62,571 nt of DNA, filler included, from Hausera hauseri (GCA_046269625.1; 11 parts of 11 records of this genome joined end to end with filler, not necessarily neighbours in it), one strand, 5' to 3'; counted from the first letter of the whole stretch, positions 15,862 through 62,571 are shown. Made by a program: numbers and translations. Notes: generated by a model not told the origin, from the sequence alone.

Positions 15862-18800
15862 TTACAAAGGACCATCTCGAATATCCTCTTCAGCCTTCTG
15901 CAGAATTTTTCCCCAATTAGCATCAAAGTACTTCGCATATCCATTCAAAAGATCAGAAAGATACTCGCTCCCTGCTGCGCCCTTTACTCCCAACCCCTCA
16001 GTTGTAATACGAGCAAACCGCCGTAAAAGTTCTGCATTTTCACGCTTGGCGCTGATAACAACTGCAAGGTACACGCTCTCCCTCTTTGCAGTAGTTAGCT
16101 CCGCCATTGGTTCAAGCAGCGCCTGGCGAGAAGACTCTATGCGTTGATTGTTCTTTGGAATAGTCTCGTCACAGTGTTGAATTCGGCACTCACACTCCTT
16201 AATTGCATTATCATACATTTGAAGCGCACATTCCACTTTATTTGCGGTCACCCTTCGCATAATTTCGCATTTCCTAAGTATTTGTTTCACTTTTTTGACG
16301 TGTAGTGGCAAGACGCCGCCACTGCGTAGTCGTTCGAGTTCGAGTTCGAGATCTCTGTCAGATATCTGCTGTTCAAGAGATCTTATCTCCTCATCCAGCA
16401 TCACAATCACTGCAGAGGCACAGTTTCTCTCCGAAAGATCAATTATGGCCATAGGAAAAGGCATGGATTGGCTGAAAATACCCGAGGGAATCAGAGACCG
16501 AGACAATTCGCCGAGTCGTTGTCGTTCGCCCCTTTTTTCCTCAAGTCGCTGACGATCGCTTTTGTTTCTCTTTTCGAACGCCTGTATTTGTTTTTCATTT
16601 GCGTTATATACTTTGTTCTTTTCTTCGAGCTGGGCCCACAAAGACGTAATTTCCGCCTGCTTTTGCCTGTGGGCATCAGCACCTGCCGTATCATTGGCCA
16701 GAAACCTGTCAATATCGTCCATATCTCCTCGATGATTCAGCTCCTCAAGTGTAATCTTTTGCTCATTAATCTTCGATAACTCCTTTGTTGTCTTTTCCTT
16801 CAACTGTTCCATCTCTGCGTTGCTCCGTTGGGCGTCAGCAATATCCGTGTTCAACAGCTTAATCCTCTCCTCCAACCCCCTGATCTTGGCAGGAACATCC
16901 GCTTCATATTTTCTCAACAAACGATTCTCCCATGTGTCAATATGCATCGAAATAGAATCTGAGAAACGCTTCTTAGCATCATCGGTACGCAACGCCGGTA
17001 AAAAATACCCTTTGTCAATCCCTGGGGAAGCAAGAAAGCCTTGTAAGATCTTATTCCTCATAGATCTATCTCGAAGATCAACGTAAAGAATACGTCCATC
17101 AGCAGCAATTCCAACAATAAAATTCCAAACCTCAATCTTCGCTTTTGCTGAACTGATCTGATCTGGATCAGACTGGTTGTGTCTCCGGATATCCTCCAAC
17201 TTACATTTCTCTTCATGCAATCCTGTGTCTGCAGCATTCTTGATATGGGCTGCCGGATCACCTTTGTACTTTGTGATTAATAAATATACAGATTGTCTCA
17301 CACAACGCTCTGTGAAGGCATTAGGTATACGATTTCTCAACCTGTTAAATAAGCCGAGTATACCTTGACACCTCTTGTCAAAAAACGCCGCAAACTCAAT
17401 TACCAACACAATACTCTTGACAGACCTTGCATTTCGGATAGCCTGGTCCATGCTGATCATTGCACGCAGTTCGTAATCCTTTGAGCGGGTGTCCTCAAAT
17501 CCTGGACAGTCACATAGTCGTAACGTTTCATAGTCGTTTCCAGTAGGCTGGTATCCATGAACGTAAGTTGTCTCCGAAGTAACTAGTGACTGACCAATCT
17601 TGGCGTATTCACCCTCAACCAAATCGTTACTTTTCAGGCGTATACGTGTTTGCTCAAGTTCCTCATATAACTCCAACGCATGTCCGATGAAGTAATTCAC
17701 AGAAACACTCTTTCCAGCACCAGTCGGCCCGAGGAACAACACAATATCCTTTCCTTGAATTCTCTCAACATGCTTGAATACATCATCGAACAAATCCATC
17801 CCCTTGAACACAGCTCGTTTCTCTCTCTTGTCTACCATTCGTGAGTAAGCCGCTTCAGTGATCAACTCAGACATTACTGTGGACACAGTCTTGGTTACAT
17901 CCATCTCCGCATACAAAGGAATGAGGCGATTGATGTCGGCTCGCAAACATTCGGGAACGTAGTCCTCGGAAACAGATTTCAGCCCGTTCCTCCGTAAATC
18001 ATTTAGAAGCCTATCAAAACATTCAGTGTTCTCCCTAGCACATAGAAATTTCAAGATGTTCAATTCAAGACCTTGGATCATTTCAAAGCGTTCCTGTGTT
18101 TTCATTGCTTCGGACACGTCCGCTGTTATCCGAATGCTGTCTTTCAACTTCCCATAGCTTGTGTCGTCCCACTCAAGACTCTGAAAATCCTCATCAATGA
18201 AGCAAGGAGTGTGGGAAAAATCGAAGGGATTGACGTTACCATTGCGAGATCCTGACAAAAGGCTAATTGCAGAGCCCTCATCACCACTTGTAGTTATCAC
18301 AAAATTATACTTCGCGTTTTTCTCTGTTAAACAGTTCAGCGTGAATGTGGCTTGCATTACGCCATCTGGAGTCTGATGTTCGTTCCCTAGTTGAAGTATG
18401 TATGACCCCTCATTGATCAGATTGTCAACTTCCATGCGTTTGTCCCGAGGGTAATAGACCTCAATTTCCTGTGTCATATCCGCATTCATGCTTGCAAGGA
18501 TTTGGCTCAACATAATGGGCTTCTTGCGTGATATATCCATAGACAACACATCGTGATCATTGAACGCTATTCGAATTCTGCTCTTATTAGCAAGATAAAA
18601 CAATAAACCTCTCCGACTTGAATCGAGAAACTCGCATCGCTTAATTACAGATGAAATAGAGTCGCACCCATTCGGATAAGAAAAATCAAACTGTTTCCCG
18701 ACAAAGTATTCTTCGTCCTTATCCAACCATTCCAGTGTTTGTGGCATGCTCCTTCTCGCATGTCTGTACAACTCAGCAACAAGAGTATACAAGTTCATGT

Positions 18801-19050
18801 CTTCACCAATGGCTGAAAGCGTTGTAGACAACCAGCCTTCGTCAGAGACAGCGTCATCACCAAATTTTTCACTGAGGAGCAGATACAGTCTTCGCTGGTC
18901 AGCAGACTTGTCCTCAGCACAGTCACCAAAGATCGCCTCTCTTATTTCATGTCTAGTGATCTTTTGCTTCCCATCCGACCCCAATGCTTCCAAGAACAAA
19001 TTCATGTTCCTTTCAAACTCTGGGGGCTCAGTAGCGTCCGGATTCATCAT
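15862..19050 (-). CDS. Large P-loop GTPase (AIG1/MMR_HSR1/dynamin-like TRAFAC class) with a long C-terminal coiled coil, intronless, ~1062 aa
   Basis: Uninterrupted 3.2-kb ORF. G1 FLGPTGAGKS, G2 SETT, G3 LCDCPGF, G4-like LLITK, and a heptad-rich C-terminal third. First ATG at 19050; the ORF track starts at an upstream TTG (19095). Confidence 0.85.
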   Translation of the reverse strand: MMNPDATEPPEFERNMNLFLEALGSDGKQKITRHEIREAIFGDCAEDKSADQRRLYLLLSEKFGDDAVSDEGWLSTTLSAIGEDMNLYTLVAELYRHARRSMPQTLEWLDKDEEYFVGKQFDFSYPNGCDSISSVIKRCEFLDSSRRGLLFYLANKSRIRIAFNDHDVLSMDISRKKPIMLSQILASMNADMTQEIEVYYPRDKRMEVDNLINEGSYILQLGNEHQTPDGVMQATFTLNCLTEKNAKYNFVITTSGDEGSAISLLSGSRNGNVNPFDFSHTPCFIDEDFQSLEWDDTSYGKLKDSIRITADVSEAMKTQERFEMIQGLELNILKFLCARENTECFDRLLNDLRRNGLKSVSEDYVPECLRADINRLIPLYAEMDVTKTVSTVMSELITEAAYSRMVDKREKRAVFKGMDLFDDVFKHVERIQGKDIVLFLGPTGAGKSVSVNYFIGHALELYEELEQTRIRLKSNDLVEGEYAKIGQSLVTSETTYVHGYQPTGNDYETLRLCDCPGFEDTRSKDYELRAMISMDQAIRNARSVKSIVLVIEFAAFFDKRCQGILGLFNRLRNRIPNAFTERCVRQSVYLLITKYKGDPAAHIKNAADTGLHEEKCKLEDIRRHNQSDPDQISSAKAKIEVWNFIVGIAADGRILYVDLRDRSMRNKILQGFLASPGIDKGYFLPALRTDDAKKRFSDSISMHIDTWENRLLRKYEADVPAKIRGLEERIKLLNTDIADAQRSNAEMEQLKEKTTKELSKINEQKITLEELNHRGDMDDIDRFLANDTAGADAHRQKQAEITSLWAQLEEKNKVYNANEKQIQAFEKRNKSDRQRLEEKRGERQRLGELSRSLIPSGIFSQSMPFPMAIIDLSERNCASAVIVMLDEEIRSLEQQISDRDLELELERLRSGGVLPLHVKKVKQILRKCEIMRRVTANKVECALQMYDNAIKECECRIQHCDETIPKNNQRIESSRQALLEPMAELTTAKRESVYLAVVISAKRENAELLRRFARITTEGLGVKGAAGSEYLSDLLNGYAKYFDANWGKILQKAEEDIRDGPL

Positions 19051-19145
19051 CGAGTCGTGGTCCAAGTGCTGTGCTGTATTTTTAATACACTGCAATTTTA
19101 CTTACACAGAGTCGCGTTACAAGAAAGGCAGAATGCACACTTGTC

Positions 19146-39545: not shown

Positions 39546-41236
39546 TACGCGAACGTTCTCTCGTCCATGTAAATCATTTAAAGAACATTAATATGTCCGT
39601 TCAATATCGAATTGATCCTAGCTCAGCGGAAAACAAGTCGTTGCATACTTTGTACGATCTGCTCCATTCATTGGTTATCAGTCTGTGATTAGACGTGCTA
39701 CACGAAAAATCCGCATCACTATTGCCAATATGACATTAATAATTTCATTGTTAGCCAGTAAAATCGATGGCCTTAGTCTCAAGATTCAAACTAATTCTGC
39801 AACCGTAATTATTAGAACATCGTTCCAAATTGAATTGGACTGTCTAACAAAATTCCAAGATAAGAAAATTAATTTGATTCTCAACGACTTAGATAAAGAT
39901 ATCAACGAATTACTTATCCGATCTTATGGCCATAACATTTTTACCGGCTATACCGTAGTTTCAACCCTGAACGTGAACAATAATAACATCATTAACAATA
40001 GCAGACGTAACACATCCAATTCATTAAAAAAACTTCGACTAATTCTTGTGAAATATCAATGTTTTCTAGTACTACAAAAAGCCGGTTATAAAAATCTTTA
40101 CCTGTTGCTTTACAAATCGCCAATATTTCCGGAAAAGAATGTCGAATCAATAAAACCAAATTCGTCCTATGACTTTCTCAATCGAGAATCGAATGACTTA
40201 TGCGAATTGATCTACATGCCAGTGAACTAAGAAAAGAATTACTGCATGTTGATTGTTTGCGAAACACAACCTCAAACGACACCGAATTATCAGATATGCA
40301 GTTTAGTTGCGTTGAAAGTGCTTTCCGTGTCTCAAAAGCATATTCTGAACAAATGGCCAAATATTATGACTCTTTTACAATGGGGATCGATCTGAACGCC
40401 CCAAAATGTCGAACTTTTTATTATTTTTCCTGTGTTAAATTTTATCAGGACAAGCACAACGTAATACATTCCGAACTACAGTAGGCACTGAACATTTTCA
40501 ACTATTTAAGTTACATAGAGTATTTAAATACATTATTAAAACAGGAGTGGGATTTCTCGGTTTGGTTTTTTCCTGATCACCGTCTGTATTTTATGGATCT
40601 AAAAATCCATACATGAGAGAGGAATCGTCACTACCGAACTAGAATTTTAGAGCATTCACAACCGAGTAGATATATTTGGAGTAGTCCATATTTCGAAATG
40701 AAATATTTTAATATTTAAAATCTGGGTGCATATATAATAAAATCTATATGCAATTTATATTAGTCAAAATATTTAATGATTATTATTGGCTAGGATCGAA
40801 TGCGTTACAAAATCTTGAACGGCTGAATGGACAATTTTTTTCAAAATATTGAAATTTCTATTACACAGTGTGTATGTTCGTTCTCATATAGAGGAGGTCC
40901 CATGAATAGCATTTAGATAAAGAAATTTAATACAAACGGTGCGTACCTTAAGGTGCCATACTCGACTATAGTAAGCTGAGTTAAAAGGTACAGTCATAAA
41001 AATTTCGCATCGAGAAGGGCTTTTGTAAAATGTGGTTTTCGCACTCAGCATAAAATCCAGAATACTGAAAAGGCGTGTAAGCCAATTCGTATAATAGTTG
41101 TAAAGGAATTGAAAATAAATGATATTCAAATAAATTGAAATGTATTTTTGGATTAAATTAAAATTTCAACCAGTTGAGTAGCCCTGTGCTAGAAGAGTTC
41201 CAAGCTTTTTGTTAGTTGTTTTTGTTGTCTCCTCAG

Positions 41237-42021
41237 ATGATGAAGATGACGACGACGATGAGGAGATTGACGTGGTGACCGTGGAGCACAAGCAGCAGCG
41301 TAAGCCTCGCCGACTGGTCGCCACCCGCAAACCTGTGACCATAACAGTTCGGGCGGACCCCCACGACCCCGGCACCAAGCGGTTCCACATCTCCATCCAC
41401 CAACAGCAGCACAACTACGCTGCCCCCTCCCCGGACATTCTGCCGGTGGCGTCTGAGCCGCCCCGGAAGAAGCTTCGACAGGAAGCCGCCGCTCCTGCGA
41501 CGCACCCTCACCTGAACTCTCTCCACCACCAGCCCCGCTTTGGCCACGCCCCCCTGAACTTGGACAGCTGGAAGTCGCACGTCACCGTGGCCGGAGTCAG
41601 GTCAGAGTCCCCCACCCTCAGCGCCTCCTCGCCCACCTCCTCCTCGTCGCCATCGTCTTTGCCCTACTCCTCCTCCTCCTCCTCCTCTTCTCACCAGCTT
41701 CAGAGCTCGCCCTCAAAGCCCCCCTCCCACCTGTCGAGCCCCCAGTCCTCGGACTGCGAGGACACGGACAAGCGGCGGGCGCACAACTTCCTGGAGCGCA
41801 AGCGGCGGAACGACCTGCGCTCGCGCTTCCTGTCGCTGCGGGACGAGATCCCGGGCTTGGCGGACTGCCCCAAGACCCCGAAGGTGGCCATCCTGACGCG
41901 GGCCACAGAGTACCTGCAGCAGCTGCACGCCGCCGACAGACAGAAGGCTCAGGAGAGGAAGCAGCTGAGAGCCCGGCAGCTGCAGCTGCTCCAGCGGCTG
42001 GCGCAGCTCAAACGCTCCTGA
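41237..42021 (+). CDS. mycl: L-Myc (bHLH-ZIP) terminal coding exon, teleost-like
   Basis: Pyrimidine tract and CAG acceptor ending at 41236. EEIDVVTVE, FHISIHQQQHNYAA, KRRAHNFLERKRRNDLRSRFLSLRD, PKVAIL and a leucine zipper. Very GC-rich codons. Confidence 0.9.
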
Positions 42022-50958: not shown

Positions 50959-51367
50959 NNNNNNNNNNNNNNNNNNNNNNNNNNNNNNNNNNNNNNNNNN
51001 NNTTAATTAATTAANNNNNNNNNNNNNNNNNNNNNNNNNNNNNNNNNNNNNNNNNNNNGCAAATACAGCCGCTTACACCAAATAATTGTTATTACGTTAT
51101 TAGTAAGGAGTTTAAACGCGGGATTATAAGCGGTTAGAGAGGGATTATGTAAAAGCTAATTAGAGAGCAAACATTGATAGGTTCAACGCAAATCAAAACT
51201 TATTAGTAAACGGTATAGAGAAACTTAATCGAAGAGAAACACGAAATAAACTTTATACTGAAGATAAGATAATAGATAAGCACTGTTTATCCGATACTAA
51301 ACTAACCTCCGTTGAACAATTTAAAGCTCCTCCTAGAATTAAAGTAGATAGACCGAATAAAATAAAA

Positions 51368-52460
51368 ATGGCAGCAGAGAACCCAGCTGTAGCCCAAAAA
51401 CTTGACATATTTACGTTCGATTCCTGGAACTTGCCGGCCTATGATGGTGACCCAGATGAACTTACTGACTTTTTACGAACCTACAAATTACACGCAGAAT
51501 GTGCCAGTCTTGCGCCCAAAGTTATGATTAAGCGATTGTCCTTGTACTTGAAAAATCTGGCTGCAGACTTACTAATAACGAGAAGAAATCATGGTCCTCT
51601 GTAGTAGGAGCCCTAAATCGTAAACTATTGCCAATGGCGACGCCATAACAGAAGCTTATGGCTTTCCAGAATAGAACACAACAAAAGGGTGAGTCAGTTA
51701 CTGAATTCGCATTCGCACTAAAGAAGCTTGCTAATAGTTACGTGAGTACGTTAAGGATAACTAATGGGGCAAAGGCGAAAACAGACGCATAACGTGAAGC
51801 GGCATAAAAGGCGAGTCCGACAGATTTAGATGTCATGATAACAACACAGCTAATAAACTACATATAGTCCAGAGATCTTGTTAAGCAACTAATTTTAGCC
51901 CGACCAGATAATTTCGAGACTGCACTACAGTTAGCACAGAACCTAGAAATGGCACTAGATAGGTATGCTAAACAGAGTGATAGATATGATCGAAATAATG
52001 ATCGTGATAACCGGGACAGAAACCGAAATAATAGAAGGTTCAACGAAAATAATAAGAATTGATGCTATGAAACTAGAACTCAAAGCGCCATTAACCGCAA
52101 CTCAGGATATGATAATAGGAACTTTAATGATAGTCGGAATACATATAATCCTTATAACAAAACAGGTTATATTCAGGATAGAAACCAAAACAATGACCGA
52201 GGCAATAAGAACCGATATATAGATAATCGGAGTTTTGAAAATAGAAATAACGGAATCGACAAGCAAGCTCAAAACAAGACAACAGGTAAACTCAAATCAC
52301 CAGTAAATTAAGATGGGAGACAAAGGATCGGCAGAGACGGGAACCTGATTTGTTATTCTTGTGGTAAAAAAGGACATATAGCTAGATCATGCCCTAATCC
52401 ACGGAGTGTATCATTTGCAGAAACCAGTAAAGCTAGCACGATAAAGGATAATTCATAAGG
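51368..52460 (+). pseudogene. Ty3/Gypsy-like gag with CCHC knuckle
   Basis: LPAYDGDPDELTDFL, RTQQKGESVTEFAFALKKLA, an R/N/D-rich linker, and ICYSCGKKGHIARSCP at 52351-52392. Confidence 0.8.
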
Positions 52461-52488
52461 AATCTACGGAAAACAAGGTGATATAAGA

Positions 52489-55400
52489 ATGATTATCGAG
52501 ATGCAGGACTTACGAAGATATGTGAAAAATATGGGCGAATCCAATAATCCAAAAGTAATCAAGGCCAGGAAAGAGTATGAAGAAAAGCTGCATCAAATGG
52601 AAGTTTATCATTGGTTAAGAGAACCAAGAACAGAGTACGAAAAAGCTATAGCACCAACTAACATGGCCAGGAAGAAAAATTTAAATCAAGCAGTGAAAGA
52701 GCAGGAAGAAAAAAACCGACTGCGTCTTCAAGTGTAAACGTGGACGCGGATACCGAAATCGTGTCTCAAAATAAATATAAAACAACGGACGAAGTTGAAA
52801 ATGAATTTATAGGGCCATTAATACTCAAGATAACCCAGAATAGAGGTAGAAGCCCCTCTCTTAGGAGAAGGTCAAGAACTCGTTCACGATCACCAGTTAA
52901 AAGGGATGCAGAAAAGGAGAAAGACTTCACAATCACTTTAAGAGATGAAACAGAGTTAAATACTCCTGTTACAATACAAGACGCTTCGGAAACAATAAAT
53001 ATTTCAAATATCGACAAAATTAGCGAAATATGTCCGTTACCACCTAGCGAAGAGGAACCAAAAGAGGAGAGATCTATTAAGTTTGGGAAGATCAGAAAGT
53101 CTTGGAAAAATGCAAGCGAACTAACCTAGATGACAGACACACTGAAGGATCCTGAGAGACTACAGGAAAGCTTGCAAAAACTTCAGCGGAATAGCAAACA
53201 ATTAGATATCTCCGGAAAAGAGCAACAATTCATAGAGAAGTTATATAAAAAGTTCAAAACTGGCCTCCAGAAAGAGGAAGAAAATATACCATATGAACTG
53301 CAAGAAATGCCGCATGACTCGATAGAAAGTTGGAAAAAGAAATTAGAATTGTGGACGAAGAGTGAAACTGAGTTTGCGAAAATAAGGTTGAATAGAAATG
53401 AGCCGATTATCGACCAGCTCAATCAAGCACAAGGACTATTAGACACACTTAAGAGCAATCCAAAACTAAAACGAGTAAAACGTAATTTAGAGATTGCTAT
53501 ACGAAATCGAAGGAGCGATAATTTCTTATCTTCATAACAAGTCAGTATACGAACTAACTAATGTCGACTTAGAGATATTTGGCATAAACCAAATCAATAT
53601 CTCCCTTCTAATAGAAATGTGCAGCCTAACAAAGGATAACCCTCGGAATTACCCAGATTTAAAAGTACTCATTGAAAAAGAAAAGGAAACACGAGCCAAA
53701 ATTAACGACGTAAGAATCAGTTTAGTTTACCTTGAAAAGGCAGAAGTATAGAGAATAATACGTGTTGACTTCTCAAGTTAGATGAGTATAGAGAAGAATT
53801 CAATTATATAAAACAATTTATAGAATTTGTACGAGGACCAGACCATGAACTAAAAGAAGCTTTTGAGGCGTTAGACGAAATAATATACGCTAAACCAGCA
53901 ATATCTAAACAATTAAGGAAGTGAATAGACTTGTTATCTTCCATAGCAGGGATAATAAACGAAAGATGGAGAGATTTCACCGATGGAGAGAGACATCAAT
54001 TAGAGGAAATGTTACTAGATATCGGTACGATGGAAGATGAAGCGAAATTGCGAATTAAGTTCAAATTATTTCGAGAGCTTAAATTTATGATCGAAGATCA
54101 AGACCAAACAACACTGACAGAGGTATGTAGTATGGTAGAAGAGAAGGAGTTTTACAAAAAAGAAGTAAGCTAAATGATCTACAGAGGAGTTTAGGGAACA
54201 TCCGTTGGGAAGAAATACAGAACCTAATGCAGAAACCATTGAAAGAAACTCTCAACACAGGAAATAGAAATATTACAAGTATGTAACGATCACCGAATTG
54301 CTCTGGCACAAAAATTACAATATTTACAGAATCCAGCAGAATGGACGCCAGGTTTTGACTTACATTGTCACACTAAATTAACAGAAATTAAGAAGGATCT
54401 TTAGTTGACGTCTGACGAAGCCAAGTTCATAGGCAGACTAATGGATGCAATAGATCCGGACGTGGAAGCGTTGAATCAAATGCACAAATTAATCGTATTA
54501 TTAACAGAAATGGCAGAAATTGACGAAGTAGTAGCTAAACGACTAACAAATAGAATAGGCCTGGTGAAAGAAACACGGTTACGCTCCGAAAAAAGTCAAC
54601 GCGAGCTAAACGAATTACTGAGAGAAACAGAAGTTTATAAGAATAAGTATTTCCTTACAGAGGCCGAAATAAACGACAAAACGGAATTTATACAAAGATG
54701 GCAAAGAGACAGAATCGCAGAAATGACTAGTTATCTGGAAAAGGCTTTGATACAACTAGAAAAAATGTGCCGATTAATAACATTGATACAACAAGCGTGT
54801 GAAAAAGGAGATTGATTTAGAATATCCGTAATGAAAATATTGCAACCGCAGTTAAGAGAATTACGCGAAAGAACCCAGGTTGGGCATATAGTACTAATGA
54901 ACTACGAGTTACCTGATTCAGAAAATGAAGCCGAGTGGGATAAATATCTCCAAGATCTAACCGAGAAAAATCAAAGAACTCCGATACAAATTTATGAGTC
55001 ACCTACCGGTGCGCAGAAGACGAGATTTGATGTGCAAATGCTACTTGATCCCACGCTAGCTGAAAAGGAATTGAGTAGTTTGTTGAAAATAAACATAAGC
55101 GAAGATAAGTTAAGGAGACTGATTCCAACCTTGACTAACCTATCCAGCGAAAATACCGCATATAGCGCCGTACCCAAGCTCTTAATAAGAGAGTACGCCA
55201 AACTATTGAAAAACAAACCGGAAGTGGAGATTAAAGTGAAAGTATCATCCGAATGGATGGATGATGAGGAATTTGAGTGTATTACTTCTACCACCGTCGC
55301 GGATATAAGACAACGAATAATGGATAAGCATGGAAAAGAATAAGTTAATTACCGGCTTTATTTCAGGGGTAGAATATTAGATGAGTTCGAATCCTTAATA

Positions 55401-55943
55401 GACGTAGGGATCATACCCCACGAACAGAATCAAATAATAACAATAATTGTCAATGAACAAACCAAAGACGAAGCCATAAGGAAGGCACATACAGAATACT
55501 GTGTTGGAAAAATCACGGGGATTCAGGACGCCGCAATGTACTCTGAATATTTACAGACGGATGACGAAAAACCGCAATATGATAAAAATTTGGTCCCGCC
55601 AAGCGAAACCTTACCACCAGTGAAACCGAAACGACCAGTCGGAAGACCAAGAAAAATAAAAGAAGTGGACTATGATGCAGACCTAATTAGAGAACTATGA
55701 CAACTATCAGTACCTACTCCGAATTCAGATAATGAAGAATTAATCGAGTTAATGAAGGATTTGATAAGGATAGTTAATTATACCGGATTACAAGGTGACA
55801 TGCTATCCGAGAAAAAAAGGTTAATATATAAAATGGCACGGACCATGAAAATTTTACGATTCAAGTTATCTAAAAGTACCCTCTCTGATGAAATGGTGAT
55901 TTATCGGATTATGATAGACAATGCAACGGAAAAATTAAAGTAG
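52489..55943 (+). pseudogene. Large decayed non-pol ORF: RS-rich patch, helical/coiled-coil body, ubiquitin-like domain (~55222-55452), AT-hook (55629-55655)
   Basis: Fragments at 52740, 53130, 53931, 54405, 54831 and 55752 share one frame, broken mostly by single stops. TTVADIRQRIMDKHG..YRLYFRGRILDEFESLIDVGI and KRPVGRPRK. Confidence 0.65.
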
Positions 55944-56003
55944 TGGGAAGGGAGGACACTGGGCCAACCCCCCCGCGGAGATAAAAATGGTGTGGGTCGC
56001 AGA

Positions 56004-56147
56004 TGAGTCATTGGTTAGAAAAAACGATACACACATGCACGATTAATAGGGCGGAAATAGGAGACACACAGTTATGAAAATAATACACACAAGAACGCGT
56101 ACTGTATGGATTGTAGGCGGACTTAAAAATTTGAATTTCGCGCCAAA
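56004..56147 (+). promoter_or_regulatory. Cluster of AP-1, CCAAT, GC-box, CHR and E2F-like sites
   Basis: TGAGTCA 56004, ATTGG 56010, GGGCGG 56049, TTTGAA 56130, TTTCGCGCCAAA 56136. Confidence 0.4.
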
Positions 56148-56348
56148 AATTTTTTTGTTTAAATTTTGATAAATTGCTTTTGTTTAAATTGTGGTATATA
56201 GCTACTAAAAAAGCCTAACAAACAAAAACAACATAAGACATAAGGTAANNNNNNNNNNNNNNNNNNNNNNNNNNNNNNNNNNNNNNNNNNNNTTAATTAA
56301 TTAANNNNNNNNNNNNNNNNNNNNNNNNNNNNNNNNNNNNNNNNNNNN

Positions 56349-61560: not shown

Positions 61561-61801
61561 ATATGTGACTGCATCAAGTTACTCGTTGTTCAAGATTATT
61601 TGACAAAACTGAAAAAGCGTAGCAATAAAGAATTCATTATTTTGCGACTTCATTCGTCAGATTTGAAAAAAGGTCGCACGATGTATCTGTCGTTATTCCA
61701 GTATCTTTACACTCATGACAGATATGGTGTTGTAAATGAGAAAAATATGGGCCTTAAAGATTATTTCCACTTTTACTTATATGAAATTTTTTGGTTAGAG
61801 A

Positions 61802-62571
61802 ATGGCAGGAAAAACTGTTAAACAGCTCTATGGAAATGGAACCGGTCAAAGTTTTATGGACAGAGTTAATGCTGCAAAGCACAGTTTTACTGGTTCGGGT
61901 TTAGCAAACGTTGTTGTTTGTAAAGCTACTACGGAGGAAACTACTGCTCCCAAAAAGAAGCATTTAGAATATCTCGTTCAATGTACGTTTGAACAAAATG
62001 TGTCCATTCCAGAATTAGCCAATTTATTAATAGAGAGAACGCAACAACCAAATTGGGTTATTGTTTTTAAAGGTCTTATTACGATTCACCATCTTATGAA
62101 CTATGAAAATGGGAGATTTTTCCAGTATATTGAGTCCAATAATAGCCAACTTAGTTTGTCCAGTTTCATGGATAGAACTGGAATACAAGCATTCGATATG
62201 TCGAAAGTTGTCCGTCAATATTCTCGATATATTGAACATAAATCACGGTCGTACAAAAGTATGGCGTTCGACTTTTGTAAAATCAAACGAGGCAAAGAAG
62301 AAGGAGTGCTGAGAAAAATGACAGCTGAAAAACTGATGAAGACTATTCCTATTTTAGAAGTGCAGCTCGATTTTATGCTTGACTTTGATGCGAATAGCAG
62401 CGAGATTAATCATTCAATAGTTTATGCATCCTTCTTGTTGCTGTACAAGGATGCAATACGATTGTTGGCAACATACAATGATGGAATGATCAATTTTGAT
62501 AGAAAAATATTTTTCGATGACAAAGAAACAATGTCGAGAGGCTTTGAATTGTTACAAAAATTTCACGAAAC
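61802..62571 (+). CDS. PICALM: PICALM/AP180 (ANTH-domain clathrin assembly protein) 5' region, intronless; frameshift near 62497; runs off the window
   Basis: GQSFMDRVNAAKHS, CKATTEE..PKKKHL, WVIVFKGLITIHHLM, AFDFCK and YKDAIRLLATYNDGMIN, then LIEKYF..KKQC in the +1 frame. Missed by the ORF track because there is no stop. Confidence 0.92.
   Translation, partial: MAGKTVKQLYGNGTGQSFMDRVNAAKHSFTGSGLANVVVCKATTEETTAPKKKHLEYLVQCTFEQNVSIPELANLLIERTQQPNWVIVFKGLITIHHLMNYENGRFFQYIESNNSQLSLSSFMDRTGIQAFDMSKVVRQYSRYIEHKSRSYKSMAFDFCKIKRGKEEGVLRKMTAEKLMKTIPILEVQLDFMLDFDANSSEINHSIVYASFLLLYKDAIRLLATYNDGMINFDRKIFFDDKETMSRGFELLQKFHE

Follow-up and report, generated by a model that had tools for sequence, protein, structure and literature searches.

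A truncated, decayed retroelement copy in Hausera hauseri belongs to an abundant envelope-bearing Ty3/gypsy family with a probable ubiquitin-like cargo domain

The DNA analyzed here (the window) is a stretch of 62,571 nucleotides from Hausera hauseri (GCA_046269625.1) in which 11 parts of 11 genome records are joined with filler. The retroelement under study occupies one complete contig of 5190 bp (∼5.2 kb; G000:C312054), and no other stretch of the window belongs to the same family. All features of the element lie on the plus strand, beginning with a 5′ leader (51059..51367) within which the open gag frame extends back to position 51164. The PBS and 5′ LTR of this copy are placed ∼70 bp outside the contig start. 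The gag region (51368..52395) starts with the ATG at 51368 and encodes a capsid region, an Asn/Arg-rich linker and a single CCHC knuckle, with stops and a frameshift breaking the frame. The knuckle (52351-52392) matches PF00098 with an E value of 2e-07, in agreement with the sequence-only reading of a Ty3/gypsy gag, while PF03732 matches gag only at E 0.047, and in a sister copy.

Downstream of gag is a cargo segment of the polyprotein (52396..55938) that shares its frame with gag and env, and that in this copy is broken and truncated at its 3′ end. The main frame extends from 52662 to 55940 and comprises 1093 codons with 17 stops, plus frame breaks. A long stretch remaining mostly in one frame after gag, as had been described, is therefore present. 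The proposed ORF of ∼1100 amino acids fits the length of this dominant frame, but its end had been placed too early, since the cargo of the family measures ∼1,250 amino acids. The segment contains a genuine RS-rich patch (52842..52895), recognized from the sequence, followed by a predicted helical body (52896..55214), a probable ubiquitin-like domain (UBL; 55215..55463) that is internal and lacks a C-terminal Gly-Gly, and an AT-hook-like motif (55629..55655). The last of these was called by eye and by a regular expression, and is a motif match with no counterpart in Pfam. Among decayed copies, the AT-hook core is retained in 31 of 49, the RS pattern in 20 of 42 and the CCHC knuckle in 32 of 44. 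The remaining interval (55674..55938) corresponds to the first part of a helical domain of ∼135 amino acids, which sister copies carry ahead of the signal peptide of Env. As the earlier reading stated, the stretch itself has no DTG, YxDD or integrase motif.

The ubiquitin-like fold proposed from sequence is upheld by profile searches, but not by structure searches that started from a weak model. PF00240 matches all 13 stop-free copies of the domain (best E 1.1e-06), although the first member reaches 24.9 bits against a cut-off of 25.4, which is near rather than clearly above threshold. PF13881 matches nine of the 13 at E values up to 1, and a profile of the domain compared with the PDB retrieves ubiquitin, ISG15, ubiquilin and MDY2. 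The predicted structure (pLDDT 63.5) has a strand-strand-helix-strand order. With this model, Foldseek returned FN3 domains and monobodies at a best E of 0.099 and no ubiquitin, and VIA gave a best Z of 5.4 with ubiquitin not among the listed matches. We conclude that positions 55215-55463 likely encode a ubiquitin-like domain.

At position 55939 the element is cut by an unrelated repeat of high copy number, for which 4121 candidates exist and 40 were scored. Its left end occupies 55939..56248 (no strand assigned). This repeat starts at the identical base in five of five other loci, each with different flanks. Moreover, all 11 sister copies compared diverge from the window from the cut base onward, and the cargo in sister copies continues for ∼70 codons past the cut, into a signal peptide. 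What looked like a stop at 55941-55943, and the tracts rich in purines, thus belong to the inserted repeat, although both were previously attributed to the element. Pol is missing from the window because of this insertion and the end of the contig. The window copy is the dead, decayed and truncated front third of an element of ∼16 kb.

A query of genome contigs with the cargo yielded 1482 candidates, of which 40 were scored, the 39 other than the window copy showing 81-88% identity. All copies examined are decayed and are 76-88% identical. In sister copies the order of domains is gag, cargo, signal peptide, a fusion glycoprotein, protease, reverse transcriptase (RT), RNase H, integrase and a second membrane protein (ORF5). 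A RING-finger ORF (ORF6) lies downstream of the polyprotein stop, followed by a PPT and an LTR of ∼700 bp. Offsets from copy to copy give a total length of ∼16.5 kb, an internal region of ∼15.1 kb and an ORF1 of ∼4,050 amino acids. The glycoprotein, between cargo and protease, matches PF24664 (Monjiviricetes fusion glycoprotein) with E values of 3.5e-44 and 1e-21, and thus a class III-type fusogen sits between gag and pol, as in GAG-ENV-POL gB-type errantiviruses. Matches for the enzymes include RVT_1 (E 4.8e-37) together with RT_RNaseH_2, rve (E 1.2e-12) and RVP (E 5.5e-05). The RT is nearest to that of Ty3 among PDB structures (E 4e-72), and this RT together with the order protease-RT-RNase H-integrase places the sister copies in Ty3/gypsy (Metaviridae). 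ORF5 combines a signal-like stretch with a transmembrane segment, and has only weak FN3-type matches (fn3 in two of 11 members, best E 0.0047) and no profile match in the PDB. ORF6 is ∼750 codons long and ends in a C3HC4 RING (E 1.6e-09; RING found in six of 11 segments); profile searches, which included one for a nuclease, matched nothing beyond the RING. No env homologues were found among 3175 candidates retrieved with the env region from long proteins, or among 4221 retrieved with env alone. Reads of sequencing run X2, which may not be independent, are present at low depth in all 30 of 30 bins. PF00379 and PF01484, used as markers of the host phylum, gave no match, a result that carries no information on the phylum. 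LTRs, PBS and PPT, and pol were thus all found in the multi-copy relatives, and the family is an abundant, autonomous, envelope-bearing Ty3/gypsy LTR element.

To evaluate the reading frame, we counted contigs spanning each junction, those in phase and those free of stops. Since many junction loci were retrieved by junction queries, these counts test frame and not frequency. The values are 24, 13 and 3 for gag N terminus to CCHC; 42, 21 and 7 for CCHC to cargo; 43, 33 and 22 for the interval between UBL and AT-hook; 41, 22 and 3 for AT-hook to env; 34, 20 and 1 for the env transmembrane segment to protease; 17, 9 and 0 for protease to RT; 2, 1 and 0 for RT to integrase, with two contigs only; and 12, 5 and 1 for integrase to ORF5. 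No stop position at a junction is common to more than two copies, whereas the stop after ORF5 is common to four of five in-phase copies. In one copy (L013), a single frame of 2,582 codons starts in the tail of the cargo and reaches the second membrane protein when stops are read as X and local shifts are set aside. One mid-cargo interval is in phase in only seven of 26 contigs, the anchor used there having contained a stop, and one cargo stop position recurs in four of 20 copies. When indels were mapped against three reference copies, shifts proved either specific to a reference or located at A-run hot spots (∼1/4-1/3 of copies), and 8-10 of ∼32 copies carry a frameshift at one mid-cargo A-run. 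Because no intact copy was seen among those examined, we infer the single ORF, albeit strongly. Gag through the second membrane protein likely once formed one open frame.

We also estimated dN/dS by the Nei-Gojobori method, with 12-61 copies compared to one reference per region, such that comparisons are not independent. The cargo body gives values of 0.26 and 0.18, the UBL 0.14 and the cargo tail 0.12. Elsewhere, values are 0.12 for gag, 0.12 for RT, 0.10 and 0.06 for env, 0.27-0.44 for ORF5 and 0.12 for ORF6. Codon third positions are the most changed, and decay after insertion raises the dN/dS values. The low values for the cargo therefore show that it was kept by purifying selection while the family was active.

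Our main reading, to which we assign a probability of about 0.85, is that the copy in the window, truncated and decayed, comes from an abundant Ty3/gypsy element of ∼16.5 kb that encodes everything from gag and cargo through the fusion glycoprotein, protease, RT, RNase H and integrase to a second membrane protein, likely in one frame, with the RING ORF after it. The order of domains, the LTR, PBS and PPT, the absence of a common stop or frameshift at the junctions, and purifying selection on the cargo are all observed. The sequence-only reading had instead proposed a non-autonomous, pol-less family carrying cargo, or a domesticated gag fusion gene. Internally deleted copies do exist, as would be expected of the former: L020 lacks env to RT and L063 lacks its middle, while two further copies have deletions inside env. 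However, the breakpoints of L020 and L063 differ from each other and from that of the window, which is an insertion, and an amplified pol-lacking class with a common structure (LARD- or TRIM-like) was not found among the sister contigs. Among 27 sister contigs retrieved by cargo-only or gag-only queries, four stop short of the cut, and all 23 that pass it remain in family sequence, seven of them reaching the protease. Pol thus follows in relatives, with an envelope gene in between, and a pol-less family is very improbable. A domesticated gene might account for the between-copy dN/dS values well below 1, but a signal between copies reflects past transposition. With the 17 main-frame stops, frame breaks and insertion in the window copy, and with well over a thousand candidate copies, domestication of this copy has almost no likelihood. 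Nor is the join between gag and the large ORF an assembly chimera, as the contigs spanning CCHC to cargo demonstrate; gag is indeed continuous in frame with a cargo that is both large and real and that has a probable UBL and an AT-hook motif.

The long helical body, also predicted in the earlier reading, has no family match in Pfam or PDB profile searches. In a representatives library of 1.8 billion proteins it has one relative (P0001) of 150 amino acids (E 6e-12). For the C-terminal half of the cargo, none of 7990 candidates among longer proteins was confirmed and the ESM Atlas gave no relative, while in metagenome contigs none of 47 pattern matches to the cargo was confirmed. The AlphaFold model of this half has a pLDDT of 37.7 and is unusable. 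A likeness of the N-terminal half to the N-terminal part of dynein heavy chain (ESM Atlas clusters 0.94, low recognition) was set aside as generic helical likeness unsupported by Pfam or PDB profiles, and a Bcl-2-like interpretation of the ∼135-amino acid tail domain found no match. A published description of the cargo was not found, which is weak evidence given that most subscription papers are outside the literature searched.

A continuous gag-env-pro-pol ORF has reportedly been described by Sacco et al. 2022 for non-canonical endogenous retroviruses (ERVs) of nematodes, which are said to be restricted to nematodes and to lack a 1,250-amino acid cargo. The earlier reading did not recognize the architecture, but a gag-UBL-env-pol layout in a single ORF is already published for the Burro (GYPSM1) elements of planarians, in the portion of the report available (PMC6431247). 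According to the same text, these giant gypsy-like LTR elements exceed 30 kb in total, with internal regions of up to 25 kb, and their one ORF of 4,873-5,140 amino acids encodes Gag, cargo that includes a Ubi2/SUMO-like domain, env in frame and then pol (PMC6431247). BURRO1 is expressed upon loss of PIWI, as stated in the accessible part of another report (PMC8532177). Our family shares with Burro, as far as that description extends, the one huge ORF, a Gag with CCHC placed first, high copy number, accessory ORFs, and ubiquitin-related cargo between gag and env, which is detected here at the profile level while the weak structure model retrieved no ubiquitin (PMC6431247). Env is likewise in frame between gag and pol, an arrangement that here is deduced from decayed copies; the Burro env is described as matching mononegavirus fusion glycoproteins (PMC6431247). 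With ∼16.5 kb and ∼4,050 amino acids our element falls short of the giant size of Burro, and it has one knuckle rather than the two or three given there (PMC6431247). Its cargo has no HMMER match to MATH, BCL2, BIR, ankyrin or dUTPase, whereas the MATH, BCL2-like, BIR, ankyrin and dUTPase-like cargo of Burro was partly detected by HHpred (PMC6431247). Conversely, the AT-hook, the RS patch, the membrane protein after integrase and the C-terminal RING ORF are features of our element that the Burro text available does not include (PMC6431247). By analogy of layout and domains with that description, the element works like Burro at half the size, and is a candidate member of that lineage.

GAG-ENV-POL errantiviruses of "HSV/gB-type" occur in Nematoda, Bryozoa and Platyhelminthes and are not monophyletic, this order having arisen in several clades, and the same partially available report cites nematode non-canonical ERVs with env before pol, as found here (PMC13524379). 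The errantiviruses share with our family a Ty3/gypsy pol, a class III-type fusogen and the gag-env-pol order, but they are intact and recent whereas all copies examined here are decayed, and their available description is without a large gag-env cargo, UBL, second membrane protein or RING ORF (PMC13524379).

Hydrophobic stretches and general knowledge of polyproteins suggest how the product might be arranged. The protein of ∼4,050 amino acids would weave through the ER membrane, leaving Gag and cargo in the cytosol, Env in the lumen behind an internal signal sequence, Pol in the cytosol on the Env tail and ORF5 again luminal. Signal peptidase and the aspartic protease of the element would cut this polyprotein. 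Env ends in two hydrophobic stretches, which makes this topology tentative.

Three roles for the cargo can be weighed. Its motifs and the RING ORF point, at slightly below even odds, to a released accessory protein whose targets are the nucleus and the ubiquitin system of the host. RS and basic patches might direct nuclear import, the AT-hook might bind AT-rich DNA and the non-conjugatable UBL could be a docking module, with the RING protein probably serving as an E3 ligase alongside. We consider it rather less likely that the cargo is structural, staying joined to the signal anchor of Env and serving, much as a matrix protein would, to tether Gag capsids to membranes that carry Env. A tether would suit a long, predicted helical cargo whose frame is continuous with Gag before it and the signal sequence after it, a Gag that begins Met-Ala and so lacks the myristoylation glycine, and a single ORF that would yield cargo and Gag in equal amounts. 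However, a cargo with an RS patch, AT-hook and UBL rather suggests the nucleus or protein turnover, and the different cargo reported for Burro in the same slot, as far as that text goes, fits accessory roles better (PMC6431247). Retention of the AT-hook core and the presence of a PBS directly after six of 12 complete 3′ LTRs would also accord with an AT-hook/UBL cargo that steers integration or holds the pre-integration complex on chromatin, and that may favor insertion beside existing copies. Yet a long distance in the polyprotein, with Env in between, separates the cargo from integrase, and tandems can arise from recombination or assembly error, making this role improbable. Returning to the accessory protein, a bolder proposal, and a doubtful one, is that the family is an enveloped gypsy lineage separate from Burro, equipped with a second surface protein, head-to-tail arrays and a two-part ubiquitin toolkit (AT-hook/UBL cargo and RING E3 ligase) directed against host silencing.

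These findings remove a false lead, as the locus is neither a pol-less element nor a domesticated gene, and enlarge by one family the small group of retroelements with gag-env-pol in a single ORF. What is new is an unrelated-looking cargo with an AT-hook and RS patch, the RING ORF and the frequent head-to-tail copies. The probable UBL lies in the gag-env slot as in Burro while the other content differs, and this together with purifying selection suggests, by analogy, that this slot is a modular accessory slot in invertebrate retrovirus-like elements. If host silencing is indeed what the cargo and RING protein target, they would count as counter-defence proteins of a type that has received little study in invertebrate LTR elements.

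The LTRs of the family are ∼660-745 bp long with TG...CA ends, a variable U3, a TATA box and AATAAA. The PPT lies upstream of the 3′ LTR and the PBS directly after the 5′ LTR. In the available part of an eLife table, tRNA-Arg entries come closest to the PBS, and a pattern search for a matching host primer tRNA gave no matches. Three of four solo-like LTRs have a TSD candidate of 4-5 bp, but LTR lengths there are inconsistent (615-846 bp). Thirty loci were recovered via the 3′ end; 12 have a complete LTR, and the six that then run into a PBS are head-to-tail copies with a shared LTR. At one such locus (L057), the depth of the unique LTR part (∼10) is not double that of the adjoining internal sequence (8.6-12.8), a weak hint that this tandem exists in the genome rather than stemming from a collapsed assembly.

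Half of the complete 3′ LTRs of the family (6 of 12) are followed directly by a new primer-binding site and gag, with a single LTR between these and the 3′ end. This head-to-tail arrangement involves the LTR regions of sister loci L057, L051, L062, L064, L068 and L204-L206, and reflects either true tandem arrays or collapsed LTRs. Sequencing depth at L057 hints at a true tandem rather than a collapsed LTR. The U3 region cannot be aligned between family copies (an example LTR occupies L057:4240-4975), whereas the final ∼300 bp of the LTR are conserved, as are its TATA box, the AATAAA signal and a small palindromic sequence.

Downstream of integrase, the family encodes a second membrane protein, ORF5 (L013:35-1400, minus strand; L045:1598-2401), whose linkers are rich in Thr and Ser. 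Matches to FN3-type domains are weak, being found in two of 11 members with a best E of 0.0047. Values for dN/dS between family copies are 0.27-0.44 for ORF5 and 0.12 for ORF6, a frame of ∼750 codons upstream of the polypurine tract (L057:5122-7474, minus strand). ORF6 ends in a C3HC4 RING, outside of which domain searches return no match.

In the window, the gag frame is open for ∼70 codons upstream of the first ATG (51164-51367). This extension is conserved in several copies, and gag might possibly start at a non-AUG codon. The repeat that cuts the element is very abundant, and its left end (55939-56248) starts sharply; no inverted repeat was found in four loci.

Elsewhere in the window, a GC-rich Myc fragment (41182-42021, plus strand) with Myc_N and HLH matches shares its stretch with a gypsy pol. 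This fragment is possibly foreign or captured DNA, because its HLH resembles that of vertebrate L-Myc. An intact frame of 1,079 codons (15862-19101, minus strand) yields only weak P-loop matches (E 0.008). Directly after a gypsy element lies a damaged, intronless frame (∼61800-62571), which resembles a clathrin-assembly gene (PICALM-like).
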